64,000 nucleotides of DNA, taken from assembly GCA_934167875.1 (NCBI GenBank), contig CAKPMC010000005.1, forward strand, positions 882 through 64,881, in the 5' to 3' direction. A program made the translations under genes and the position numbers. The notes below the pieces were generated by a model that saw nothing but the letters and a program-made list of their open reading frames with translations, was not told the origin of the DNA and searched no databases. Of the stretch, positions 15,768-51,735 are shown in pieces. The DNA comes from an uncultured Bacilli bacterium (GTDB lineage Bacteria; Bacillota_I; Bacilli_A; RF39; UBA660). Numbering within the stretch: position 1 is the stretch's first letter; the number at the start of each line of letters is the position of its first letter.

Positions 15768-17309
15768 TTATTTTTTACCTAATTCTGCTAGTTTTTTCTC
15801 TTTATCAATTCTCATAAATAAAGCTTCAGGGCAACCAACTTCATAAGAATTATCACTTAAGTAAGTTAATTCACTTCTAGAATTATTAATCTGCGTCTTT
15901 ATTTTTTCACTTGTATCAGGTAAATATGGTCTTAAGAAAATACCACATACACGAATAGACTCCAATAAGTTATATAAAACTGTTTCTAATCTATCTTTTT
16001 TACTTTCATCTTTTGCTAAAACCCAAGGTTCAGCTTCGTCGATATATTTATTGCTTCTTCTTAATACATCAAATATTTCATCAAGTGATGCACCTATTTC
16101 TAAATTGTCCATTTTCTTTTCAATTTTACTATCAAGATTTTGAATCATAGAAATTAACTCATTATCATAAGTGTCTAAAACATTTTTATTACTAACTTTT
16201 CCATCAAAATATTTATTAACCATAGAAATAGTACGATTAACCAAATTACCTAAAACATTAGCTAAATCACTATTAATTCTTTCAATTAATAAATCATAAG
16301 TTAAACTACCATCTTGTTGATAAGGAATTTCATGAAGTAAATAATAACGAATTGCGTCTACTCCAAACTCATTTACTAAATCATCAGCATAAATAACGTT
16401 TCCTTTAGACTTACTCATTTTACCATCACCTACTAATAACCATGGGTGACCAAATACTTGTTTTGGAAGTGGTAAATCAAGACTCATTAAGAAACAAGGC
16501 CAATAAATAGTATGAAAACGAATAATATCTTTTCCTATTAAATGTAAGTCAGCAGGCCAATATTTACTAAACATTTCACTACTTCCATCTGGATCATAAC
16601 CAATATTAGTAATATAATTTGTTAGAGCATCAAGCCATACATAAACAACATGTTTAGGATCAAAATCAACTGGAATTCCCCAATTAAAAGAAGTACGAGA
16701 AACACATAAATCTTGAAGACCTGGCTTAATAAAATTATTAATCATTTCATTTTTTCTAGACTCTGGTTTAATAAAATCAGGGTGTGATTCAATATACTCT
16801 ATTAATCTATCTTGATACTTAGAAAGTCTAAAAAAGTAAGCTTCTTCACTTTTTGGTTCCACATCACGACCACAATCAGGACACTTTCCATCAACTAACT
16901 GACTTTCTGTAAAGAATGATTCACAAGGAGTACAATAAAGACCTTCATATTTACCTAAATAAATATCACCTTTATCATACATTTTTTTAAATATTTTCTG
17001 TACAATTTCTTCATGATGCTTATCAGTAGTTCTTACAAATTTATCATAACTTGTGTTCATAATATCCCAAATATTTTTGATTTCAGCGGCAACACCATCA
17101 ACAAATTCTTTAGGAGTAATTCCTTTTTCTTCTGCTTTTATCTGAATTTTCTCACCATGTTCATCAGTTCCTGTTTGAAAATAAACATCAAATCCTTTTA
17201 ATCTTTTATAACGTGCAATACTATCTGCCAAAACTATCTCATAAGTATTACCAATATGAGGTTTTCCTGATGTATAAGCAATAGCTGTTGAAATATAATA
17301 TTTTTCCAT
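15768..17309 (-). CDS. metG: Methionine--tRNA ligase (short form, without a C-terminal tRNA-binding domain)
   Basis: HIGH-type motif GKPHIGN, KMSKS motif and zinc knuckle CPDCG. Start refined to MEKYYIST (ATG at 17309, GGAGAG RBS). The track ORF would overlap dut. Confidence 0.95.
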   Translation of the reverse strand: MEKYYISTAIAYTSGKPHIGNTYEIVLADSIARYKRLKGFDVYFQTGTDEHGEKIQIKAEEKGITPKEFVDGVAAEIKNIWDIMNTSYDKFVRTTDKHHEEIVQKIFKKMYDKGDIYLGKYEGLYCTPCESFFTESQLVDGKCPDCGRDVEPKSEEAYFFRLSKYQDRLIEYIESHPDFIKPESRKNEMINNFIKPGLQDLCVSRTSFNWGIPVDFDPKHVVYVWLDALTNYITNIGYDPDGSSEMFSKYWPADLHLIGKDIIRFHTIYWPCFLMSLDLPLPKQVFGHPWLLVGDGKMSKSKGNVIYADDLVNEFGVDAIRYYLLHEIPYQQDGSLTYDLLIERINSDLANVLGNLVNRTISMVNKYFDGKVSNKNVLDTYDNELISMIQNLDSKIEKKMDNLEIGASLDEIFDVLRRSNKYIDEAEPWVLAKDESKKDRLETVLYNLLESIRVCGIFLRPYLPDTSEKIKTQINNSRSELTYLSDNSYEVGCPEALFMRIDKEKKLAELGKK

Positions 17310-17319
17310 AATATCTCTC

Positions 17320-17799
17320 CTATCTACCTGTAGAACCAATACCACTCGTTCTAACATTATCTATATTTTCTTCATTATCAACTGTTAAAAATGGAATAAA
17401 AATACCTTGGCAAATTTTATCACCTTTTTTTACTACATAATCTTTATCTCCATGATTTTCCAGTTTAATCCACATATGACCTTCGTTATCAGGATTATTA
17501 TAATAATCTCTATCAATAACGCCAACTTGATTGCACATTCTAACATTATATTTAAATCCTTGACTACTTCTTACCACTATTAGTAAAACTTCTGATGAAT
17601 TCATATTAGCCTTAACACCAAGTGGAAATTTTTTTATTTCACCAGGTTTCAAAGTAAAATCAAATAAAGATTCAAAATCATAACCAGCACTTTCTTTCGT
17701 ACTTCTCTTAGGAATATTATATGATTCATATAATTCTTTATCATCACTTACATCATTTTTAAATTGTTCAAAACTAATTTTTTCAAAATATCTTGCCAT
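17320..17799 (-). CDS. dut: dUTP diphosphatase (trimeric dUTPase family)
   Basis: Motifs SAGYDF, VVRSSQG, GVIDRDYY, KGDKICQ and C-terminal RTSGIGSTGR. ATG at 17799 lies 6 nt after GGAGG. Confidence 0.8.
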   Translation of the reverse strand: MARYFEKISFEQFKNDVSDDKELYESYNIPKRSTKESAGYDFESLFDFTLKPGEIKKFPLGVKANMNSSEVLLIVVRSSQGFKYNVRMCNQVGVIDRDYYNNPDNEGHMWIKLENHGDKDYVVKKGDKICQGIFIPFLTVDNEENIDNVRTSGIGSTGR

Positions 17800-17811
17800 A
17801 ATTACCTCCAA

Positions 17812-18021
17812 AAAAAGCGACTATTCTTCCATAAGGACGAATAATCGCGGTACCACCTTAATTTATAGCATAACACTATACACTTAAACTCTTAACGCGA
17901 GTAACGAATAACTATAATTATCAGCTCCAGAACCATTTATTATTGTTCCTCTATATCTACTTTCACCTAACTAGACTCTCTCAAATAGATTTCCAATAAC
18001 TCTTTCCTTCAAAACATTTAT
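17812..18021 (-). promoter_or_regulatory. T-box riboswitch leader, probable Met specifier
   Basis: The minus strand carries Stem I boxes AGAGAG and GGTGAAAG and a candidate specifier AUG in AAUAAAUGGUUC. The T-box sequence AAUUAAGGUGGUACCGCG follows, then the terminator GCGATTATTCGTCC-TTAT-GGAAGAATAGTCGC-T6. Confidence 0.85.
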
Positions 18022-25785: not shown

Positions 25786-25801
25786 TATTTCCCGGGAAAT
25801 A
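25786..25801. promoter_or_regulatory. Noc-binding site (NBS) palindrome
   Basis: TATTTCCCGGGAAATA matches the B. subtilis NBS consensus at 16 of 16 positions. It is embedded in the 26-bp palindrome AAAATTATTTCCCGGGAAATAATTTT between rsmI and pth. Confidence 0.8.
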
Positions 25802-30184: not shown

Positions 30185-31888
30185 CTAATTTATTGATATC
30201 ATATCTTCACCAAATAATTCGATAGCTTCATCAGTTATAGACCCATTATTTTTATCTACTATATTATTAGCAATTGAAATATCTGGTAATTTTTTATATT
30301 CATATTTAATATTATTATTCATATTTAATATATAATTTTCCTTTTCGTGATTCCACCTATCATTAGTTACCAATGCAATATCATAATGCTTATTATATAT
30401 TTTTTCAAATAGCTTGGAAATCTTTTCAATAATTTTAATACCTCTATCAACCATTGACTCATAAGCAAAAGAAATCAGTACTTCATTCTCACCAACTACT
30501 CTTACTACTCCATCTGAAATATAACATGCAACTGCACCAAATTCATTATCTAATGCATAATCATTAAGTTTATTCCAATTATTTTCAAAGTCCAATTTAT
30601 TTTTTTTATTTGCCCTAGCAAAGCAATTATTAATAATAATATCTAAAATTTCATCATATTTTTCTGAAGTTTCATCAGATAATTGTGGACTAATTATTTC
30701 CCGGGAAATAATTTTATCGGTATTATTATTTGTTTTTTGATAATCATTATCATTAACAGCATTACTAACTTGAAGTTCTTGATTATCTTTCACAGGAGTT
30801 GTTGTATCTGGTAATTTATGATAATCATTATCATTAATATTTTGTTTTGTTAGAATATTCTTATTAATAAATGATAATAATTCTATTTCTAAAGCAATTC
30901 TAATATTTGAAGAAAATTCAGCATTTTTCAATGTATTATTTAATGAATTTAAAAAACTTAATAATAAATCAATGTTATACTTATTTTCATTATTAACATA
31001 ATACGAAACACATAAATTTTTACACAGATTTATCATATCTTGAATAAATACAACAAAATCTTTACCATTATCATATATACTATCAATAAAGCTAATAATA
31101 TAATTTATGTTACCATTCATCACATTATCTAAAAATTTCATACGATCTGGTAATGATACAATTCCATTCACCTTTTCAAAATCTTCAATTGTAATATTAG
31201 AATTGGAATAAGCATTTAATTTATCCAACATACCAACAGCATCACGCATACCACCATCTGATAATTCAGCTATTCTACTTAAAATTTCATTTTCTACTTT
31301 AATATTTTCCTTTTCGCATATATACTCTAACCTCTTAGTAATATCTTCACAGCTAATGCGATGAAATTCAAGGCATTGACACCTAGATATAATAGTGACT
31401 GGTACTTTATGCAAATCAGTTGTAGCTAAAATAAAAATTACATGTTCTGGTGGTTCTTCTAAAGTTTTTAATAGTGCATTAAAAGCACCAATTGATAGCA
31501 TATGAACCTCATCAATAATATATACCTTATATTTTAATTGACCAGGTACTAAATTAATCTTACTTTTAATTTCACGAATTTCATCAACACCATTATTAGA
31601 AGCAGCATCAATTTCTATAATATCAGAATTTGAATTATCACTAATAGATAAACAATTTTTGCATTTTCCACAGGCATCGCCATCATTTAATTCCAAACAA
31701 TTAACAGTTTTTGCTAATATTTTAGCGATAGAAGTTTTTCCAATTCCACGCGGACCAGAAAACATATAAGCATGACAAACTTTATTATTAATAATTGCAT
31801 TTTTCAATATTTTAATAACAATATCTTGGCCAATTACATCTTCTAAAGTAGACGGTCTATATTTTCTATATAAAGCTTGATAAGACAT
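30185..31888 (-). CDS. dnaX: DNA polymerase III subunit gamma/tau
   Basis: Walker A GPRGIGKTS, zinc module CGKCKNC, DEVHMLS and SRCQ. Start MSYQALYRKYRP at 31888 after GGAGGTG. Confidence 0.93.
   Translation of the reverse strand: MSYQALYRKYRPSTLEDVIGQDIVIKILKNAIINNKVCHAYMFSGPRGIGKTSIAKILAKTVNCLELNDGDACGKCKNCLSISDNSNSDIIEIDAASNNGVDEIREIKSKINLVPGQLKYKVYIIDEVHMLSIGAFNALLKTLEEPPEHVIFILATTDLHKVPVTIISRCQCLEFHRISCEDITKRLEYICEKENIKVENEILSRIAELSDGGMRDAVGMLDKLNAYSNSNITIEDFEKVNGIVSLPDRMKFLDNVMNGNINYIISFIDSIYDNGKDFVVFIQDMINLCKNLCVSYYVNNENKYNIDLLLSFLNSLNNTLKNAEFSSNIRIALEIELLSFINKNILTKQNINDNDYHKLPDTTTPVKDNQELQVSNAVNDNDYQKTNNNTDKIISREIISPQLSDETSEKYDEILDIIINNCFARANKKNKLDFENNWNKLNDYALDNEFGAVACYISDGVVRVVGENEVLISFAYESMVDRGIKIIEKISKLFEKIYNKHYDIALVTNDRWNHEKENYILNMNNNIKYEYKKLPDISIANNIVDKNNGSITDEAIELFGEDMISIN
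30695..30710. promoter_or_regulatory. Noc-binding site (NBS) palindrome inside the dnaX coding sequence
   Basis: TATTTCCCGGGAAATA matches the consensus at 16 of 16 positions. It is read in dnaX as the codons for I-I-S-R-E-I-I. Confidence 0.75.
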
Positions 31889-31945
31889 AATACACCTCCA
31901 AAACACTTATATTATACCATTAAAAGCTATTAATTTTAACTATAA

Positions 31946-32395: not shown

Positions 32396-32413
32396 AATTT
32401 CACCTACAAAAAA

Positions 32414-32487
32414 GGTGCACATAAATATTATATGTTAAGGCTGCTATCTTCCGATCCTGACCTGGTTCCATAAATACTTATTGCACC
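32414..32487 (-). ncRNA. ffs: Signal recognition particle RNA, minimal 4.5S-like form
   Basis: The minus strand reads GGTGCAATAAGTATTTATGGAACCAGGTCAGGATCGGAAGATAGCAGCCTTAACATATAATATTTATGTGCACC followed by T6. It has the conserved domain IV core CCAGGUCAGG..CGGAAG..AGCAGCC and closing helix GGUGCA/UGCACC. Confidence 0.8.
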
Positions 32488-32494
32488 AATGAAT

Positions 32495-32523
32495 ATAATA
32501 TTATATTTTATAAAAAAGAGCAA
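32495..32523 (-). promoter_or_regulatory. Promoter of the SRP RNA
   Basis: TTGCTC, a 17-nt spacer, then TATTAT. The start of the GGTGCA helix lies 7 nt downstream. Confidence 0.6.
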
Positions 32524-32532
32524 CTTTTTTTA

Positions 32533-32548
32533 TGTTTCACGTGAAACA
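32533..32548. promoter_or_regulatory. parS site 1 (ParB/Spo0J centromere)
   Basis: TGTTTCACGTGAAACA fits consensus TGTTNCACGTGAAACA perfectly. The palindrome extends to 18 bp: ATGTTTCACGTGAAACAT. Confidence 0.85.
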
Positions 32549-32549
32549 T

Positions 32550-32558
32550 TGTGGAAAA
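32550..32558 (-). promoter_or_regulatory. DnaA box (TTTTCCACA) fused to parS 1
   Basis: The plus strand reads TGTGGAAAA, 1 nt after parS 1. It has one mismatch to TTATCCACA and is the same variant that dominates oriC here. Confidence 0.65.
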
Positions 32559-32637
32559 TATAATTTAAATACATATATTTATAATTAAATTATTTAAAAT
32601 TATAGTGTTTTGATACAAATATTAACTAATTTTGCTA

Positions 32638-32653
32638 TGTTTCACGTGAAACA
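32638..32653. promoter_or_regulatory. parS site 2
   Basis: TGTTTCACGTGAAACA, a perfect match. Confidence 0.85.
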
Positions 32654-32662
32654 TGTGAATAA
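32654..32662 (-). promoter_or_regulatory. DnaA box-like (TTATTCACA) fused to parS 2
   Basis: The plus strand reads TGTGAATAA directly abutting parS 2. One mismatch to the consensus. Confidence 0.55.
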
Positions 32663-32857
32663 CTATTATTTTATTAATATAATATATAAATAAAATAATA
32701 GTATGTAAAATTTAATCATTTCAAAAAAACTAATAAAATCAGTACTATATAAAGTAAAATATTATGATCTTAGTACGTTAATATTTTATATAGTAAATAT
32801 AATTATTATAAGCTATATTATTTTCTAATATCATATAAATATTTAGAATAATATATA

Positions 32858-32873
32858 TGTTTCACGTGAAACA
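32858..32873. promoter_or_regulatory. parS site 3
   Basis: TGTTTCACGTGAAACA, a perfect match. Confidence 0.85.
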
Positions 32874-32874
32874 T

Positions 32875-32883
32875 TGTGGATAA
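32875..32883 (-). promoter_or_regulatory. Consensus DnaA box fused to parS 3
   Basis: The plus strand reads TGTGGATAA, the exact complement of TTATCCACA, 1 nt after parS 3. Confidence 0.75.
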
Positions 32884-32885
32884 AT

Positions 32886-32901
32886 TATTTCCCGGGAAAT
32901 A
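32886..32901. promoter_or_regulatory. Noc-binding site (NBS) in cassette 3
   Basis: TATTTCCCGGGAAATA matches at 16 of 16 positions, 2 nt after the DnaA box. Confidence 0.8.
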
Positions 32902-33112
32902 ATTTGAAACATCGTATATTACTCAAATAAATATATAATAACAAAATTATTAAATAGTGATGTAAATTAATAGCTGTTTTTTACACCAAATCACATAAGT
33001 AACAAGTAAGTAATATATTAATATTTATTTACATTACAGTAAAAATTAATTTTAAATTATGTAATTTAAATTAATAATTGTTTTAAGTACTTCATTAAAA
33101 TAAATAAAACAA

Positions 33113-33128
33113 TGTTTCACGTGAAACA
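33113..33128. promoter_or_regulatory. parS site 4
   Basis: TGTTTCACGTGAAACA, a perfect match. Confidence 0.85.
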
Positions 33129-33137
33129 TGTGGATAA
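33129..33137 (-). promoter_or_regulatory. Consensus DnaA box fused to parS 4
   Basis: The plus strand reads TGTGGATAA directly abutting parS 4. Confidence 0.75.
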
Positions 33138-33140
33138 ATT

Positions 33141-33156
33141 TATTTCCCGGGAAATA
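33141..33156. promoter_or_regulatory. Noc-binding site (NBS) in cassette 4
   Basis: TATTTCCCGGGAAATA matches at 16 of 16 positions, 3 nt after the DnaA box. Confidence 0.8.
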
Positions 33157-33190
33157 ATTTATAAAAAATAGCTTTTAACAATTAATAAAA

Positions 33191-33199
33191 TTATCCACA
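33191..33199 (+). promoter_or_regulatory. Consensus DnaA box, inverted relative to the other four
   Basis: TTATCCACA on the plus strand, 19 nt before the fifth parS-like palindrome. Confidence 0.7.
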
Positions 33200-33218
33200 A
33201 ATAAATAAATCAAAATAT

Positions 33219-33234
33219 AGTTTCACGTGAAACT
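33219..33234. promoter_or_regulatory. parS-like site 5 (outer positions changed)
   Basis: AGTTTCACGTGAAACT keeps the inner 14 bp of parS and the palindrome. It lies 13 nt downstream of the gyrA stop. Confidence 0.65.
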
Positions 33235-33246
33235 AAAAAAGTATGT

Positions 33247-35892
33247 CTATTCAGACACACTTTCATTATTTTCACTTTCACTATTATCAAGTTCAGTAGC
33301 AGACTCAGTTGATTCTTCATCTTCCTTAATAATGGTAGAAACAGTTGCTACCTTTTGATCATCTTTAAGTTTAATTAAACGAACACCTTGAGTAGCACGA
33401 CCTAAGGTAGATATTTGATCCATTGCCATTCTCATTACGATACCACTATCAGTAATAATAACTAAATCTTCTTCACCAGTAACAGCCTTTAATGATACTA
33501 ACATACCATTCTTTTCAGTAACATTAAGTGCCTTAACACCCTTACTACCACGATGCGTTAATCTATATTCGTCAATTGGAGTCTTCTTTCCATAACCTTT
33601 TTCAGTAACTATTAATACCTGTTCATCAGAAGTAATTATTTCGCCACCTATAACCGTGCTATTACCTAATTCAATACCTTTAACACCAGAAGCAGTACGA
33701 CCCATGACACGAATTTCGTTTTCCACAAATCTTACCATTCTTCCATTTGATGCACCAATAATAACTTCATTTTCTCCAGTAGTTTTACGAACAGATATAA
33801 GTTCATCATCTTCTTTTAACGTTATAGCAATTTTTCCACTACTACGTATATTATCAAATTCACTTAAATCAGTACGTTTAACAATACCATTTTTAGTAAC
33901 AAATACAAAGTAATTATATTCATGTTCCTTAGCACTCAATGAAACAATAGAATTAATGCTTTCACCTTTTTCCACAGGTAATAAATTAACTATTGGCAGT
34001 CCTTTACTTTGTCTGCTAAATTCTGGAACCTCATAACCTTTCATTCTGTATACCTTACCTTTATTACTAAAGAAGAATATATAATCATGAGTTTCCATAT
34101 TAATCATCTTTTCCACAAAATCCTCTTCATTAGTAGCCATACCTTTAATTCCTACTCCGCCACGATTTTGTGTACGATAAGCATCAACTGGCATTCTCTT
34201 AATATAACCTTTATTAGTTAATGTAATTAATATGTTATCCACAGGTATCAACGATTCATCCTCTATATATTCAATTGCTGTCATATCAATTTGAGTTCTA
34301 CGATCATCACTGTACTTACGCTTAATTTCTAGCATTTCCTCTTTAATAATATCTAGAACTCTTTGTCCATTAGCTAAAATATCCTTATAATCAGCTATCT
34401 TAACAAGTAAATCATTTAATTCAGCTTCTACTTTTCCACGTTCTAATCCAGTTAAACGACGTAATCTCATCTCAAGAATACTGTTAGCTTGAATATCATC
34501 TAAAGCAAATCTAGACATTAAATTATTTCTTGCCTCATCATCACTTTCAGCAGCCCTAATAATATGTACAACTTCATCGATATTATCAAGTGCTATACGT
34601 AATCCTTCTAAAATATGAACTCTTTCTTCAGCTTTTCCTAAATCATAACGAGTTCTTCTTAAAATTACTTCCTTTTGATGATCTATATATTTAGAAATAA
34701 TATCCTTTATACCTAAAGTTCTAGGAGTTTGACCATCAAGAACTAAGAAAATAATACCATAAGATATTTGAAAATTAGTATGCTTATATAATTGATTCAA
34801 AATAACTTGTGCATTAGCATCTTTCTTTAAAGTAATAGTAATTTTAATACCATCTTTTAAATCAGTATGATAATCAGAAATACCTTCAATAGTTTTATTA
34901 TGAACAAGTTCAGCAACTTTATTTTTAAGTTCCATAGTATTAACACCGTAAGGAACTTCTGTAATAACTATTTGATGATGATTACCATTTTCTTCAATAG
35001 TAGCTTTACTACGAATAGTAATGGAACCTCGACCTGTTTCATAAGCTTTCTTAATACCAGAATTACCTAAAATAATACCACCTGTAGGAAAATCTGGTCC
35101 TTTAATATATTGCATCAATCCCATGGTATCAATATCTGGATTATCAATATACGCAACACAACCATCTATAACTTCTCCTAAATTATGTGGTGGAATATTA
35201 GTAGCCATACCAACTGCAATACCCATAGATCCATTAACAAGTACATTAGGAAATCTAGAAGGTAATACTTTAGGTTCTTTTCTTGTAGCATCAAAGTTGT
35301 CATCCATATCAACAGTATCTTTATTAATATCCCTTAATAATTCCAATGAAATTTTAGCAAGCCTTGACTCGGTATAACGCATTGCTGCTGCGCCATCTCC
35401 TTCAATATTACCAAAATTACCATGGCCATCAATTAACATATATCTTTGGTTAAAATCTTGCGCTAAACGTACCATTGCTTCATAAATAGAACTATCTCCA
35501 TGTGGGTGATAATTACCCATAACTTCTCCGACCGTTTTAGCGCTCTTTCTGTGAGGTTTATCAGGTGTATAACCAGATTCATACATAGACCATAAAATAC
35601 GTCTGTGAACAGGCTTTAAACCATCTCTAAGGTCAGGTAATGCACGAGACTTAATAACACTCATTGAATATTCCATAAAAGAAGTTTTAACTTCATCTAC
35701 AATGTTATTATGATCTAATCTATCTCTTTCATGAAAATATCCACTAAAATTACCATTAGATTTAATTATATCAATATCTTCTTGAGAATTATTATCATTA
35801 GTATTAGAAGTATCATCAGTAACATTATCAGTATTATTATCTTCTTCACTAGCTCTAGCTAATAATTCATTTAAATCATCTTTGTTATCCAT
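33247..35892 (-). CDS. gyrA: DNA gyrase subunit A, with an acidic N-terminal extension and an acidic C-terminal tail
   Basis: Motifs YSMSVIKSRALPDLRDGLKPVHRRILW and active-site AAMRYTE, plus beta-pinwheel CTD repeats. ATG at 35892 lies 7 nt after GGGAGG. Confidence 0.97.
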   Translation of the reverse strand: MDNKDDLNELLARASEEDNNTDNVTDDTSNTNDNNSQEDIDIIKSNGNFSGYFHERDRLDHNNIVDEVKTSFMEYSMSVIKSRALPDLRDGLKPVHRRILWSMYESGYTPDKPHRKSAKTVGEVMGNYHPHGDSSIYEAMVRLAQDFNQRYMLIDGHGNFGNIEGDGAAAMRYTESRLAKISLELLRDINKDTVDMDDNFDATRKEPKVLPSRFPNVLVNGSMGIAVGMATNIPPHNLGEVIDGCVAYIDNPDIDTMGLMQYIKGPDFPTGGIILGNSGIKKAYETGRGSITIRSKATIEENGNHHQIVITEVPYGVNTMELKNKVAELVHNKTIEGISDYHTDLKDGIKITITLKKDANAQVILNQLYKHTNFQISYGIIFLVLDGQTPRTLGIKDIISKYIDHQKEVILRRTRYDLGKAEERVHILEGLRIALDNIDEVVHIIRAAESDDEARNNLMSRFALDDIQANSILEMRLRRLTGLERGKVEAELNDLLVKIADYKDILANGQRVLDIIKEEMLEIKRKYSDDRRTQIDMTAIEYIEDESLIPVDNILITLTNKGYIKRMPVDAYRTQNRGGVGIKGMATNEEDFVEKMINMETHDYIFFFSNKGKVYRMKGYEVPEFSRQSKGLPIVNLLPVEKGESINSIVSLSAKEHEYNYFVFVTKNGIVKRTDLSEFDNIRSSGKIAITLKEDDELISVRKTTGENEVIIGASNGRMVRFVENEIRVMGRTASGVKGIELGNSTVIGGEIITSDEQVLIVTEKGYGKKTPIDEYRLTHRGSKGVKALNVTEKNGMLVSLKAVTGEEDLVIITDSGIVMRMAMDQISTLGRATQGVRLIKLKDDQKVATVSTIIKEDEESTESATELDNSESENNESVSE

Positions 35893-39085: not shown

Positions 39086-39538
39086 CTATATTTTAGTTAA
39101 TTTTCTCTCATTTAAAATCAAATTAAGTCTAGAAGCTCTCATAACCTGATTTTCTATTGATTTTTTTGACATATTTGTCTTTATTTTTTGACCATTTTTA
39201 AGAACTATATATGTAATATTATCAGTTTTTTCAACATTCTTATACCACTTTAAAGCTATCCATATACAATCACTGTTTTCTGGTGAAGTAATTGGAAAAA
39301 AAATCATTTCTGAACTTTCTTCTACTATAATTGGTAATTTATAATTTGCTCCTAACATTCTTTTACTTCCATCTACTCTGCCAGAATAAGAGCTTCCAAA
39401 ATACTGACAAGAATAATCCATTACTTCATAACTACTGTTTGATAACTTATATTCATTATTTTTTTCATAAACTTTTGAATTATTTTTATCAATTCCTAAT
39501 ACTGCCATTGTTTCATCATTTACTTCATACTCTTTCAT
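39086..39538 (-). CDS. comK: ComK family competence transcription factor-like protein
   Basis: ComK hallmarks YEVN..T.AV, SCQYFGSSYSGR, KLPIIV, IFFPITSP, C.WI and ENQVMRASRL. ATG at 39538 follows GGGGGA. Confidence 0.75.
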   Translation of the reverse strand: MKEYEVNDETMAVLGIDKNNSKVYEKNNEYKLSNSSYEVMDYSCQYFGSSYSGRVDGSKRMLGANYKLPIIVEESSEMIFFPITSPENSDCIWIALKWYKNVEKTDNITYIVLKNGQKIKTNMSKKSIENQVMRASRLNLILNERKLTKI

Positions 39539-39621
39539 ATTATTTCCCCCTGCAATCAAATTGCAAGTCATACTATAACAGTATAATTAGTCGAAAATAA
39601 TCGAAAAATGTCATATTATAT

Positions 39622-40921: not shown

Positions 40922-42331
40922 CTATACTATTTCTTTCTTTAATTTTTCAATAATATTAGCTAATTCTTTATTAGTTGCTATTTCATTTTCTATTTTTTCC
41001 ACGGAGTGCATAACTGTTGAATGATCTTTACCACCAAACTCAATTCCTATTTTAGGAAATGACTCATTTGTGAGTTTCCTACATAAATACATTGCTACTT
41101 GTCTTGGAAATGCTAAATTAGCACTTCTTTTCTTTGACTTCATATCTTCAACTGATACCTGAAAGTATTCAGCAACAATTCTTTGTATTCTATTAACACT
41201 ATTTTTTTCACTATATCCTTTATTTACAAAGTCTTTTAATACATCAACCGCCAGATCTAATGTTATTTCTGCACCACCCATGATAGTTGAATAAGCAAGT
41301 AGTCTTGTAATTGAACCTTCTAGATGTCTAACATCGCTACCAACATTAGAAGCAATATATTCAATAACATCATCAGGTATATTTTTATTCAACGACTCCC
41401 CTATTATCTTTTTCTTGATGATTGCTACTCTTAAATCAAAATCCGGTGGAAATATATCAGCGGTTAATCCCCAACAAAATCTAGTTCTTAACCTATCTTC
41501 TAATAGTTTTAAGTCATCTGGAGAACGATCAGATGAAATAATTATTTGTTTATTTTCATCGTAAAGCTTAGTAAATGTATTAAAAAACTCATTCTGTGTT
41601 TGCGGTGCGCCTTGAAAAAATTGAATATCATCTACTATTAATACATCAATACTCCTATATTTATTTTTAAAATAACTAACATAATCAAAGTTTTTGCCAT
41701 TTTCATCCTTTTTATTAATACCTAAGAAATCAGTTATAAATTGATCACTTGATACATATAAAACCTTTTTATTAGAATGTTCTGTTATATAATTACCAAT
41801 TGCATGCATTAAATGTGTCTTCCCTAATCCACTATTTCCATATATAAATAAAGGATTATATAAAACACCAGGATTTTCGGCAACTTCAAGTGCAGCAGCT
41901 TGTGCAAATTTATTTGTATTCCCTACTATAAAATTTTCAAAAGTATAATTTTTATTAAGATTTGAACAGAAATTGTTAATAACATTACTATTATCTATAC
42001 TCTTTCCATCGTTATCAACATTATTGTGGATATACATAGGATTTATATTATCATTACTAGTATTTTCATTTTCTAATTCATCTATTTCTTCTTTAGTATA
42101 GAATTCAATATCAATATTATCACCTACAACATTACTTAGGTTATCTACTATTAATTCATAATATTTAGTAGCCAAATGTTTTTTATACATAGCCATTGGC
42201 ACTATTATTTTGCATACACCATCTTTATATTCATATAATTCTGTATTTTTAAACCAGGTTTCAAACGATAAGGGGTTTAATTCATTTTTAATAACGTTTA
42301 AAAAATTAGCCCAAATAATTTTTGTATTCAT
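40922..42331 (-). CDS. dnaA: Chromosomal replication initiator protein DnaA
   Basis: Walker A GNSGLGKTHL, VDDIQF and the C-terminal DNA-binding domain GGKDHSTVMHS. RBS GGGGGGA. Confidence 0.97.
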   Translation of the reverse strand: MNTKIIWANFLNVIKNELNPLSFETWFKNTELYEYKDGVCKIIVPMAMYKKHLATKYYELIVDNLSNVVGDNIDIEFYTKEEIDELENENTSNDNINPMYIHNNVDNDGKSIDNSNVINNFCSNLNKNYTFENFIVGNTNKFAQAAALEVAENPGVLYNPLFIYGNSGLGKTHLMHAIGNYITEHSNKKVLYVSSDQFITDFLGINKKDENGKNFDYVSYFKNKYRSIDVLIVDDIQFFQGAPQTQNEFFNTFTKLYDENKQIIISSDRSPDDLKLLEDRLRTRFCWGLTADIFPPDFDLRVAIIKKKIIGESLNKNIPDDVIEYIASNVGSDVRHLEGSITRLLAYSTIMGGAEITLDLAVDVLKDFVNKGYSEKNSVNRIQRIVAEYFQVSVEDMKSKKRSANLAFPRQVAMYLCRKLTNESFPKIGIEFGGKDHSTVMHSVEKIENEIATNKELANIIEKLKKEIV

Positions 42332-42612
42332 TATTATTATCCCCCCTGACTAAAGATAATTTCAAATTGCAAGTCTTATTCTAACTTAAAATTGTGGAAA
42401 AATAAATAGTTATTTTTATCTTTTTTTTAATTCACAGTTTATCAACAGTTTTTTCCACAAATATAAACCTTATATATATTGAATATATCACACTTTTCCA
42501 CAAATTTAAAAAAATAACTAATCACAAGGTTAATAAAGTTATAAACAAGACTGTGGAAATAGTGGAAAATTACATTTATAATGTGGAAAATGAATATTTT
42601 TTTATGAAATAA
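42332..42612. promoter_or_regulatory. oriC, dnaA-upstream half (incA/B-like) DnaA-box cluster
   Basis: Boxes at 42393-42401, 42439-42447 (TTATCAACA), 42451-42459, 42494-42502, 42552-42560, 42561-42569 and 42582-42590. Most are the TTTTCCACA variant, in both orientations, in AT-rich DNA. Confidence 0.85.
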
Positions 42613-42642
42613 TTGACAAAACCTAATATTTATTATTATAAT
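42613..42642 (+). promoter_or_regulatory. Promoter of rpmH-rnpA
   Basis: TTGACA, an 18-nt spacer, then TATAAT. Confidence 0.65.
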
Positions 42643-42673
42643 AATGTAGATTTTATGTCTGGAGGTGGAAACT

Positions 42674-42796
42674 ATGAAAAGAACTTATCAACCAAATAAT
42701 CGTAAGATGAAAAAAGCACATGGATTTTTTTCAAGAGTTAAAGGTAACGTATTAAAGAAAAGAAGAGCAAAAGGTCGTAAAAGATTATCTAAATAA
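42674..42796 (+). CDS. rpmH: 50S ribosomal protein L34
   Basis: Below the ORF-track size cut-off. Hand translation gives [51 protein letters not shown]. Confidence 0.9.
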
Positions 42797-42825
42797 AAAA
42801 TGCCACAATTATGTGGTTTTTTTTG
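42797..42825 (+). terminator. Weak intrinsic terminator/attenuator after rpmH
   Basis: CCACA-ATTA-TGTGG hairpin followed by a T8 run. Confidence 0.5.
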
Positions 42826-46189: not shown

Positions 46190-46220
46190 AAAAATTATTT
46201 CCCGGGAAATAATTTTTTTC
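46190..46220 (+). terminator. NBS-containing hairpin positioned as the mnmE terminator
   Basis: AAAAATTATTTCC-CGG-GAAATAATTTTT perfect palindrome followed by more Ts, 46 nt after the mnmE stop. Confidence 0.6.
46196..46211. promoter_or_regulatory. Noc-binding site (NBS) palindrome
   Basis: TATTTCCCGGGAAATA matches at 16 of 16 positions. Confidence 0.8.
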
Positions 46221-48959: not shown

Positions 48960-49988
48960 ATGGATAAAGAAGTAGTTGAATTATATTTAGATGACATAAT
49001 TCCTAACCGTTTTCAACCACGTGAAGTATTTAATGAAGAGGCACTAAGAGAATTATCAGCATCTATAAAAGAACATGGTGTAATTCAACCAATTATTGTT
49101 AGAAAAATAGGTGACAAATATGAAATAATAGCTGGTGAAAGAAGATATAAAGCATCAGCATTAGCAGGACTAACAAAAATTCCTGCCATAATTCGCAACC
49201 TAGATGATAAAGAAGCTTCTAAAGTTGCCCTTTTAGAGAATCTTCAAAGAAAAGATTTAACAGCAATAGAAGAAGCAAGAACATATCAAAAAATACTTGA
49301 ATTAGATTCAATGACACAAGAAGAATTAGGTCGTACAATGGGTAAATCTCAAGCAGCAATAGCTAATAAAATGAGATTATTATCATTACCAGATGAAGTA
49401 CAAGAGGCTTTATTAAAAGATCAAATATCAGAACGTCATGCTAGAAGTTTATTAAACTTAGATACTCCAGAAGAACAAATTAATATGTTAAGAAAGATAA
49501 TATCTAATCGTATGACAGTAAGAGAATTAGATAATGAAATTAGAGAACTAAAAGGTGAAACATCAATTCCATCAACTATTAACAATGATAGTGTTACAAT
49601 AGTAAATGAAACTGGTCCAAAAGTAGAAGTAAATAATAATGAATCACATGAAGTGCCAACATTAAATTTACCAGAATCACCTTCAAATGAATTAGATGAT
49701 GATTTCTCACCATTATCTTTTATTCCTAAAGATGATACTCCAGAAGTATTAGAAGCTTTATCTGATATTGAAGAACCAGAACCAATAGAAGAAAAATCAA
49801 ATACTGATGATTTTAAAGCTATTGATAATTTATTAAAATCAACGAAATTGTATACAATGGAAGATGCTGTGAATGAAATAAAAAGTGTAGTAGCTAAAAT
49901 TCAAAATAAAGGAATAAAGATTACTACTGATGATATGGATTTTGAAAATACTTATCAAATAGTTATTAAAATTGATAAAAACAATTAA
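48960..49988 (+). CDS. noc: Nucleoid occlusion protein Noc (ParB paralog), atypical termini
   Basis: ParB N-domain IIPNRFQPR and GERRYKA. The HTH recognition stretch GKSQAAIANKMRLL resembles B. subtilis Noc (GKGQSTIANKLRLL as recalled). Position between rsmG and soj supports the call. Confidence 0.8.
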   Translation: MDKEVVELYLDDIIPNRFQPREVFNEEALRELSASIKEHGVIQPIIVRKIGDKYEIIAGERRYKASALAGLTKIPAIIRNLDDKEASKVALLENLQRKDLTAIEEARTYQKILELDSMTQEELGRTMGKSQAAIANKMRLLSLPDEVQEALLKDQISERHARSLLNLDTPEEQINMLRKIISNRMTVRELDNEIRELKGETSIPSTINNDSVTIVNETGPKVEVNNNESHEVPTLNLPESPSNELDDDFSPLSFIPKDDTPEVLEALSDIEEPEPIEEKSNTDDFKAIDNLLKSTKLYTMEDAVNEIKSVVAKIQNKGIKITTDDMDFENTYQIVIKIDKNN

Positions 49989-50078: not shown

Positions 50079-50867
50079 ATGGGAAAGATAATTTCATTAG
50101 TAAATCAAAAAGGTGGAGTAGGAAAAACAACAACAAGTATTAATCTTTCTGCATCACTTGCTTATTTAGGTAAAAAAGTATTATTAATAGACTTAGATCC
50201 ACAAGGTAATACAACAACTGGTGTAGGAATTAATAAAGGCGATATCACAAATAGTGTTCATGAAGTTTTAACTGGTAAATGTGAAATTACTGAAGCAATT
50301 ATAAAAACAAAGTATAAAAATTTATATGTTTTACCTGCAACTATTAATCTAGCAGGATTAGATATGGAATTAATTGAAAAAAGTAAAGTAAATCAAGGCT
50401 TCGCTAAGAATGCCCAATTAAAAACATTTTTAGATCCAATTAAAGACTTATTTAATTATATAATAATTGATTGTCCCCCTTCTTTAGGATTAATAACTAC
50501 TAATGCACTAACAGCTTCAGATTCAGTTATTATCCCAGTTCAATGTGAATTTTTTGCTTTGGAAGGAATTACTCAATTATTAAATACTATTATGTTAGCT
50601 CAAAAGAATTTAAATCCAAATCTAGATATAGAAGGTGTTTTATTAACAATGCTTGATTCTAGAACATTGTTAGGACTAGAAGTAGTAGAAGATATAAGAA
50701 GATTCTTTAAAGAAAGAGTATACAATACTATAATTCCAAGATTAGTAAAATTAACCGAAGCACCTTCACATGGAAAACCAATATTAGCTTATGACCCAAA
50801 ACATAGGGCAACAGAAGCTTATATAAATTTAGCAAAGGAAGTGATTGCACGAAATGGAGACATCTAG
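50079..50867 (+). CDS. soj: Chromosome partitioning ATPase ParA/Soj
   Basis: Deviant Walker A NQKGGVGKTTT, DLDPQGN and DCPPSLG. Confidence 0.93.
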   Translation: MGKIISLVNQKGGVGKTTTSINLSASLAYLGKKVLLIDLDPQGNTTTGVGINKGDITNSVHEVLTGKCEITEAIIKTKYKNLYVLPATINLAGLDMELIEKSKVNQGFAKNAQLKTFLDPIKDLFNYIIIDCPPSLGLITTNALTASDSVIIPVQCEFFALEGITQLLNTIMLAQKNLNPNLDIEGVLLTMLDSRTLLGLEVVEDIRRFFKERVYNTIIPRLVKLTEAPSHGKPILAYDPKHRATEAYINLAKEVIARNGDI

Positions 50868-51735
50868 AAGAAAGGCTTTAGGAAGAGGCCTAGAAGAATT
50901 ATTTAATAATGAACCAATGGATTATGAAAAAATTGAAGAAAAAATAATGGATGAATCTACAAATGAAGAAATAGTTGAATTACCATTATCTGAATTAAGA
51001 AGCAATCCATATCAGCCAAGAAAGAACTTTGATGAAGGAGCATTACAAGAATTAGCTAACTCTATTAAAGAACATGGCGTATTTCAACCAATTATTGCTA
51101 AAAAGAGTATAAAAGGTTATGAAATAATAGCTGGTGAGCGTAGAGTAAAAGCCTCAATTCTAGCAGGAAAAGAAACTATTCCAGCTATTTTGAGAGATTT
51201 TTCAGATCAAGATATGATGGAAATTGCTTTACTTGAAAACTTACAAAGAGAAAATCTTAATGCTTTAGAAGAAGCTATAGCTTATAAAAAGTTAATAGAT
51301 GAATTATCATTAACACAAGATAAACTTGCTGAAAGATTAGGAAAAAGTAGAAGCCATATTACTAATATGTTAGGATTATTATCATTACCAGAAGAAGTAA
51401 AAGATATGATAATGGCTAATAAATTATCTATGAGTCATGCACGTGTTCTAAGTAAGATAGAAGATAGTGAAAAAGTTAAACAATTAGCAGAAAAAATAGT
51501 TGTAGAAGGCTTAAGTGTAAGAGAGGTTGAAGATCTTTCACATGAAAATATTTATGAAAAGAAAAATACACAAGTAAGACATGAAACTAATCGCAACGAA
51601 TACAAAGTAATAGAAGAAGAATTATCAGATAAATTTGGAACCAAAGTAAAAATTAAAAATAATAAAATTGAAATTCATTTTGTAAACCCTAATGATTTAA
51701 ATAGAATTTTAGAAATTATTGGACTAGATAACTAA
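50854..51735 (+). CDS. spo0J: Chromosome partitioning protein ParB/Spo0J
   Basis: Motifs ALGRGLEELF, NPYQPRK and GERR. HTH stretch GKSRSHITNMLGLL and C-terminal NDLNRILEII. ATG at 50854; the track TTG start is 50845. Confidence 0.9.
   Translation: METSRRKALGRGLEELFNNEPMDYEKIEEKIMDESTNEEIVELPLSELRSNPYQPRKNFDEGALQELANSIKEHGVFQPIIAKKSIKGYEIIAGERRVKASILAGKETIPAILRDFSDQDMMEIALLENLQRENLNALEEAIAYKKLIDELSLTQDKLAERLGKSRSHITNMLGLLSLPEEVKDMIMANKLSMSHARVLSKIEDSEKVKQLAEKIVVEGLSVREVEDLSHENIYEKKNTQVRHETNRNEYKVIEEELSDKFGTKVKIKNNKIEIHFVNPNDLNRILEIIGLDN

Follow-up and report, generated by a model that had tools for sequence, protein, structure and literature searches.

The 64,000-nucleotide stretch of contig CAKPMC010000005.1 analysed here (hereafter the window) comes from an uncultured Bacilli bacterium of the RF39 lineage, and its gyrA gene is followed by a short intergenic spacer in which five parS sites are interleaved with DnaA boxes and Noc-binding sites (NBS). 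The three kinds of motif are closely packed, enriched in the spacer and conserved in the lineage, and genes for the cognate proteins are present in the window. We read the spacer as a chromosomal centromere, that is, a ParB loading zone, which is probably (at about 0.68) fused with loading sites for a Noc paralogue and with DnaA boxes. Clustering of parS is by itself already known; the tripartite interleaved architecture was in none of the papers searched, and the array physically unites elements that are dispersed in Bacillus.

The parS array after gyrA

A mismatch-tolerant scan of the 64-kb window found TGTTTCACGTGAAACA with no mismatch at 32533..32548 (parS1), 32638..32653 (parS2), 32858..32873 (parS3) and 33113..33128 (parS4). 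A fifth copy, parS5 (AGTTTCACGTGAAACT, 33219..33234), has two mismatches and lies right after the gyrA terminator. The initial annotation of this DNA had placed four perfect sites and one variant at these positions, and the scan bears it out; its further statements, that the four perfect sites all extend to an 18-bp palindrome (ATGTTTCACGTGAAACAT) and that successive sites are spaced by 105, 220, 255 and 106 bp, are both correct. At ≤2 mismatches, 0.01 sites are expected in 64 kb against the five observed, and none of 100 shuffled sequences reached five. The same threshold gave no further parS in the window, and ≤3 mismatches gave none in the window plus 10 kb past each end (∼84 kb, with same-species contigs L172-L175). 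This includes spo0J, inside which B. subtilis has a site and in which the annotation had likewise seen none.

The spacer spans 32498-33246 (749 bp), with a GC content of 16.8% that falls to 11.7% once the motifs are masked. Its upper boundary is gyrA (33247..35892, minus strand), whose intrinsic-terminator-like hairpin (33237..33264, minus) ends the transcription unit ahead of the array and runs into parS5. The lower boundary is a small signal recognition particle (SRP) RNA gene (32398..32497, minus; RF00169, 60.6 bits), which is transcribed away from the array and beyond which follow tadA, dnaX, ybaB and recR in that order. As no open reading frame (ORF) in the spacer exceeds 43 codons and an Rfam search matched nothing inside it, finding only the adjoining SRP RNA, a hidden gene or non-coding RNA was ruled out, and the earlier description of a gene-free, AT-rich spacer stands. 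The slot downstream of gyrA, which holds a ribosomal RNA operon in Bacillus, here holds the SRP RNA.

Left of ∼42 kb, every gene is encoded on the minus strand, and the GC skew, of constant sign from 1 to 42 kb, changes sign solely near 42 kb, beside dnaA (40922..42331, minus). Together, the position of dnaA and the skew switch place the array ∼9-10 kb from oriC, in line with the distance from dnaA that had been proposed. The soj-spo0J pair at 50-51.7 kb lies on the opposite side of oriC from the array, 17 kb away.

Across six metagenome assemblies obtained independently for this species, the spacer length agrees within 1 bp and one single-nucleotide polymorphism falls inside it, indicating that the array is not an assembly artefact. 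We also considered within-species polymorphism as a test of selection; because the strains are nearly identical, it shows that the array is real and nothing more. Tandem Repeats Finder (TRF) reported no repeat unit in the window spacer: the motifs alone recur, so the array is not a strict tandem repeat. Helical phasing of the parS spacings was weak (394 intervals, Rayleigh R = 0.11 at 10.5 bp) and the copies are non-independent, so we did not rely on it.

On the minus strand of the spacer's lower end (32498-32560), a promoter-like TTGCTC (-35) and TATTAT (-10), separated by 17 bp, precede the SRP RNA gene. parS1 lies ∼9 bp upstream of this putative -35 element, and the last parS is followed by TTGCTC or TTGTAT also in the related loci L001 and L008. 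Binding of ParB at parS1 could affect expression of the SRP RNA.

Composite modules in the window and its relatives

The initial annotation treated the array as consisting of parS only. The parS sites do match the genuine consensus, but DnaA boxes and two NBS in the same spacer had been overlooked. Every one of the five parS sites has a DnaA box 0-19 bp away when up to one mismatch is allowed. Four boxes lie 0-1 bp from their parS, each on the side proximal to gyrA and oriC: TGTGGAAAA (TTTTCCACA, one mismatch; 32550..32558, minus) is 1 bp from parS1; TGTGAATAA (TTATTCACA, which fits TTATNCACA; 32654..32662, minus) abuts parS2; and the perfect box TGTGGATAA (TTATCCACA) occurs 1 bp from parS3 (32875..32883, minus) and again directly abutting parS4 (33129..33137, minus). 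The fifth, a perfect TTATCCACA in the opposite orientation (33191..33199, plus), stands 19 bp before parS5. As in a DnaA-box cluster, several boxes share a short stretch: five at ≤1 mismatch, three of them perfect, within 650 bp of oriC-proximal non-coding DNA. Perfect TTATCCACA was found six times in the window (0.73 expected), three times inside the 749-bp spacer; by our own arithmetic, the probability of three in 749 bp with three in the other 63 kb is ∼1e-5. The box variants in the spacer fit the classical TTATNCACA consensus, and the same kinds are seen in the spacers upstream of dnaA and between dnaA and dnaN. The upstream part of oriC (42332..42810) combines the GC-skew switch with five DnaA boxes (≤1 mismatch) of the TTTTCCACA/TTATCNACA kind.

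For NBS, we took the consensus ATTTCCCGGGAAAT established for B. subtilis (PMC3020112, PMC7383237). The perfect 14-mer occurs five times in the window, against 0.16 expected; two copies lie in the spacer and three are dispersed. One spacer copy (32887..32900) sits within a 24-bp palindrome (AAATTATTTCCCGGGAAATAATTT), 3 bp from the DnaA box of parS3, and the other (33142..33155) is 4 bp from the DnaA box of parS4. Read from the oriC side, the full module is AATT-ATTTCCCGGGAAAT-AAT(T)-TTATCCACA-(A)-TGTTTCACGTGAAACA-T, that is, an NBS, 3-4 bp, a DnaA box (TTATNCACA), 0-1 bp and a parS in a unit of ∼45 bp. Two of the dispersed copies are intergenic (25787..25800, and 46197..46210 between mnmE and mnmG).

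The third dispersed NBS (30696..30709) lies inside dnaX (30185-31906, minus), where the 14-mer recurs unchanged at the corresponding position in 19 of 57 relatives. Its translation is (I)ISREI(I), and the neighbouring residues are completely diverged. Such a pattern indicates selection on the DNA palindrome itself, within a stretch of DnaX that appears hypervariable, and conservation as DNA argues that the NBS is functional in this lineage. In the window and in L001, the dnaX site is followed by aatTAGTCCACAa / aatTAATCCACAa, with the NBS-3 bp-box geometry that is seen in the array.

The relatives comprise 80 loci fetched by GyrA (97-70% identity; L numbers denote individual loci and contigs), all from metagenome-assembled genomes of uncultured gut bacteria. 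Their records name them as Bacilli, Tenericutes, 'Ca. Scybalousia' or Clostridium sp. CAG:417; the NCBI taxonomy, inconsistently, puts 'Ca. Scybalousia' under Bacteroidales. About 60 of the 80 carry 2-11 parS sites within 2.6 kb after gyrA, and no parS was found away from this array in 755 kb of these relatives. The 18-bp palindrome is kept, with the flanking A present in 95% and the flanking T in 92%. Copy number shifts fast, from five in the window to nine in L001 at 97% GyrA identity, and the parS5 variant has an identical copy at the equivalent place in L001. Alignment of the spacer across relatives, which the initial annotation had suggested as a check, showed that the DNA between the motifs is unalignable between species and that the motifs persist.

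Counted at ≤1 mismatch, NBS have a density of 2.03 per kb within arrays compared with 0.066 per kb outside, a 31-fold difference, and in 34 cases an NBS is centred 27 ± 2 bp away from the middle of a parS, on its oriC-proximal side. An abutting TTATNCACA was present on the oriC-proximal side of 37 of 219 parS sites, compared with three at the mirror position and 0.47 expected. These abutting boxes are concentrated in the sublineage of the window (the window itself, L001-L006, L041 and L064). Other arrangements include a reversed DnaA box (L042, L046, L056 and L058), TAATCCACA located 7 bp before seven of the eight parS of L079, and TGTGGAAAA ∼20 bp after parS in L063. In some lineages the array encloses, or is preceded by, the SRP RNA or tadA. 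When parS and NBS were masked in 88 arrays and an unbiased 7-mer screen was run on them, ATCCACA, the DnaA-box core, came out on top (27 arrays against a null of 4.0); 7-mers derived from the SRP RNA, from arrays that enclose its gene, ranked alongside it, and more DnaA-box 7-mers came next.

True head-to-tail tandem units of 61-117 bp, in which parS and NBS alternate, exist in some relatives: L166 (32-660, 11 x 61 bp), L055 (8755-9050, 70 bp), L066 (2858-3117, 72-73 bp) and L075 (8481-9080, 117 bp). L152 carries eight full tripartite modules. In many tandem units the NBS is degenerate or TGTTCCACGTG variants occur, suggesting that units continue to arise and decay. The comparison with dense tandem centromeres of plasmids, made in the initial annotation, is therefore apt in part: the spacer is dedicated and some relatives are tandem, but the window array is irregular, yields no TRF unit and is not next to parAB.

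A metagenome search for NBS-N9-15-parS returned 78 contigs, and all 75 of those with a recognisable flanking gene adjoin gyrA, tadA or dnaX. The contigs have GC contents of 19-31% in all but two cases, and their GyrA identity extends down to ∼51%. L123 and L147 carry typical AT-rich tripartite modules on contigs of 38% and 48% GC and may be chimeric assemblies. Among the fetched loci, L017-L019, L021, L023-L025, L027, L032, L050 and L053 (GyrA 71-80%) have neither parS nor a perfect NBS downstream of gyrA; isolated palindromes in parS-free loci include an NBS-like TTATTTCCTAGGAAATAA in L018.

Candidate reader proteins and proposed function

Downstream of rsmG, the window encodes, in this order, a 342-residue ParB_N + HTH_ParB protein, Soj/ParA (50079..50867, plus), an ATPase, and Spo0J/ParB (50854..51735, plus; 293 residues from the ATG), the presumed reader of parS. 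Spo0J has B. subtilis Spo0J as its best match in the PDB (6SDK, 208 bits, compared with 158 for Noc); it has the domains ParB_N and HTH_ParB, the motifs GERRxKA and ENLQR, and an N-terminus of the ParA-contact type. Residue rules for parS versus NBS specificity have been worked out, with Noc having QKKR at four positions (Q173, K179, K184 and R201; PMC7383237); the R at the 173-equivalent and the S at 201 of Spo0J are compatible with parS specificity. We regard the assignment of parS to this ParB as very likely. The product of dnaA is canonical (TIGR00362, 511 bits) and the presumed reader of the DnaA boxes, at which functional DnaA binding is plausible.

The 342-residue protein (48960..49988, plus) is a Noc-family paralogue and the presumed reader of the NBS. 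Its best PDB matches are the Noc structures 7NG0, 7NFU and 7OL9 (190-207 bits, compared with 168 for Spo0J), and it has Q, K, S and R at the specificity positions, that is, three of the four Noc residues. An amphipathic N-terminal helix is needed for membrane binding of Noc (PMC8429893, PMC4331003). The first residues of the paralogue align to positions 27-28 of the Noc structures, where the engineered NocN-delta-26 starts, and an in-frame stop is found six codons upstream of its ATG; the paralogue therefore lacks the 10-residue amphipathic membrane-targeting helix. All seven clade homologues that we read, out of at least 120 listed at 100% coverage, start alike. The paralogue and its homologues contain an acidic or proline-rich linker of 100-180 residues, and it is mainly there that the homologues differ. 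The C-terminal segment of the paralogue appears to resemble the C-terminal domain of B. subtilis Noc. As the NBS inside dnaX is conserved at the DNA level, we consider it likely that the NBS are read by this paralogue.

In the arrangement that we favour, the stretch from the gyrA terminator to the outward-facing SRP RNA promoter would be free of transcription and form an origin-proximal centromere. Spo0J/ParB dimers would nucleate on the five parS sites and then, by analogy with characterised ParB proteins, close into cytidine triphosphate (CTP) clamps, recruit SMC and stimulate Soj. Within the same ∼45-bp module, the Noc paralogue would also find a place to load and DnaA a high-affinity site. 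The array would thus be a combined hub, at which a Noc paralogue without a membrane helix is co-loaded into or beside the ParB partition complex and DnaA is held near the site where ParB acts on Soj. Such a hub would merge titration by DnaA-box clusters (DBCs) with the control of initiation by Soj/Spo0J, two systems that are separate and genetically synergistic in B. subtilis. Coupling of this kind would be meaningful because DBCs and Spo0J/Soj act together, synergistically, to restrain initiation in B. subtilis (PMC3245932) and Noc of S. aureus restrains DnaA-dependent initiation by an unknown mechanism (PMC5540599). Occupancy by each of the three proteins, in simultaneous or competitive binding, and any effect on segregation or initiation are inferred.

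A further-reaching version, which we put forward tentatively and consider rather doubtful, is a three-factor loading platform on which clamps of ParB and of the helix-less Noc paralogue would load side by side with DnaA wedged between them. The Noc paralogue would then be a second centromere protein, not a nucleoid-occlusion factor, acting as partner, insulator or roadblock for ParB clamps, and the array would gate DnaA as a datA under ParB/Soj control. If true, two clamps of the ParB family would here cooperate naturally on a single DNA element, and Noc-type control of initiation would have a physical basis.

The array bears on how ParB-family CTP clamps deal with roadblocks and with each other, and likewise on the restraint of DnaA by Noc in S. 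aureus and the cooperation of DnaA-box clusters with Spo0J/Soj. Its three sites lie within ∼45 bp, are repeated and are kept in the lineage; they make up a compact, synthesisable substrate that, along with a Noc truncated naturally at its N-terminus, would allow tests in vitro or in B. subtilis. Noc-family proteins may serve another function beyond the model Bacillales.

Alternative explanations and known systems

Several points weigh against a fused, three-protein centromere. The adjacency of DnaA boxes is limited to some sublineages, its geometry varies and many arrays have no box; arrays without NBS also exist (for example L062, L068, L073, L078 and L079), and ∼12 related loci have no parS after gyrA. 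A palindrome search in these ∼12 parS-free loci found no recurring GC-containing palindrome after gyrA, so these lineages are truly without an array at the post-gyrA position. The gaps of 0-4 bp may make simultaneous occupancy sterically impossible, and with sites this close, binding may be competitive, or DnaA may form a roadblock between two clamp-loading sites. At specificity position 184, the Noc paralogue carries S where Noc has K; it scores 289.6 bits with the NCBIfam model nucleoid_noc (TIGR04285), under the cut-off of 315, and is missing the membrane helix required for classical Noc function. The support assembled here is sequence evidence from uncultured organisms. For this genome it covers ∼84 kb, and further parS sites may lie in the remainder.

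One alternative is that the spacer is a plain multi-copy parS centromere, with NBS and boxes sharing the sole large free origin-proximal spacer without functional coupling. Incidental co-location would follow from the preference of all three proteins for origin-proximal sites; origin-proximal parS clusters are common, a single site usually being enough (PMC7333895, PMC7022226), NBS are also dispersed in the window, the geometry of NBS, box and parS varies between sublineages, and many arrays are without boxes or NBS. Within sublineages, however, gaps of 0-4 bp, order and orientation are fixed while the DNA between modules has diverged. Such a centromere also sits poorly with 37 boxes on the proximal side against three at the mirror position, with the 31-fold enrichment of NBS in arrays, and with the finding that each metagenomic NBS-parS pair with recognisable flanking genes sits at the gyrA/tadA/dnaX locus. 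We consider it unlikely, if a serious contender. Much less probable is that the spacer is primarily a locus for titration or inactivation of DnaA, of the datA or DnaA-box-cluster type, with parS and NBS recruiting clamps that modulate access of DnaA. The five boxes in 650 bp are as many as upstream of dnaA, and they are oriC-proximal, where the B. subtilis clusters work best (PMC3245932). Yet parS is the universal and best-conserved element, most lineages lack the boxes, and the boxes do not cluster but occur singly, at intervals of 100-250 bp.

An origin role for the spacer, whether as a piece of oriC or as a second origin, might be suggested by its DnaA boxes and extreme AT-richness (11.7% GC between motifs); we hold this to be very improbable, as the GC skew is constant in sign from 1 to 42 kb and has its only switch beside dnaA, the boxes are isolated and not arrayed as in an origin, and the spacer is 9 kb from dnaA. 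On the skew, a secondary origin at the spacer was rejected. Equally hard to credit is an artefact or selfish repeat without host function, for instance a collapsed assembly or a palindromic element that is mobile. The fast change in copy number between species (five here, nine in L001) would fit it, but the six independent assemblies share their spacer length within 1 bp, the motifs match three known protein-binding consensus sequences exactly, and copies are absent elsewhere in the window, in the ∼84 kb and in the 755 kb of relatives.

Set against known ParABS clusters, the fused centromere that we favour has the identical 16-bp consensus palindrome (tGTTtCAcGTGaAACa), several copies near oriC and ParA/ParB genes nearby, with the same presumed ParB nucleation, SMC loading and origin segregation (PMC7333895, PMC3245932, PMC7022226). 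The initial annotation had set the clustering of parS against the dispersed sites of Bacillus, but clustering alone is not unusual: multi-copy origin-proximal chromosomal clusters are well known, ranging from 1 to 23 sites with 20-23 in S. coelicolor and L. innocua (PMC7333895), and B. subtilis has eight origin-proximal parS and P. aeruginosa parS1-4 (PMC7333895, PMC3245932, PMC7022226). Why parS sites cluster is a question raised explicitly in PMC7333895, and the array bears on it. Whereas known sites are spread over tens to hundreds of kb and are mostly intragenic, those described here are packed in one 0.7-kb non-coding spacer (≤2.6 kb in relatives) and joined to sites for other proteins, and the spo0J-internal site is absent.

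With the Noc-NBS system of B. subtilis and S. aureus, the window shares the identical 14-bp palindrome ATTTCCCGGGAAAT, the presence of dispersed NBS, and a paralogue in the rsmG-noc-soj-spo0J slot with Q173, K179 and R201. It differs in that the paralogue has no membrane-targeting helix and has a 100-180-residue acidic linker, and in that NBS are concentrated 31-fold in the parS array and paired with parS, often ∼27 bp centre-to-centre; Bacillus has ∼70 NBS, which are scattered (PMC4331003). Like the DBCs of B. subtilis and datA of E. coli, the spacer is a short oriC-proximal non-coding stretch with several consensus boxes. Its boxes are single, by contrast, with four of the five joined to parS and the fifth 19 bp from one, and a DBC abutting parS has not been described.

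Plasmids also have tandem centromeres: sopC of F is made of 43-bp repeats, and parS of P1 has an embedded IHF site and is thus composite. The array shares with them dense, repeated partition sites in dedicated non-coding DNA, and the arrays of L166, L055, L066 and L075 are truly tandem; in contrast to plasmid centromeres, it is chromosomal, irregularly spaced and not adjacent to parAB, and it has the chromosomal parS consensus. Interleaved centromere and initiator elements are known from parS2-B/rctA of V. cholerae chromosome II and from cisII/cisMP of D. radiodurans, which are bound by DnaA and ParB (PMC3688505, PMC7671480). In those cases the replicon is a secondary one and the sites are within its origin or at it, whereas the array described here is on a primary chromosome, 9 kb from oriC, and includes NBS as a third element. 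Searches of open-access texts turned up neither an interleaving of parS with NBS, nor DnaA boxes directly beside parS on a primary chromosome, nor an association of such arrays with a naturally helix-less Noc paralogue.

Among the other genes of the region, the core origin block includes a ComK-family gene (PF06338, E = 2.6e-40; 39086-39571, minus), with dnaN on one side of it and recF on the other. A T-box leader (RF00230, 95.6 bits; 17830-18021, minus) lies upstream of the ORFs 15768-17357 / 17320-17811. Sporulation-associated families (YabG peptidase U57, Veg, SpoVG, YabP and BofA) are encoded on same-species contigs that flank the window (L174 2500-4227, L084 6170-6355). The organism that carries them bears the NCBI label 'Tenericutes bacterium' and has 26.7% GC, and its lineage may be spore-forming, or at least keep sporulation genes.

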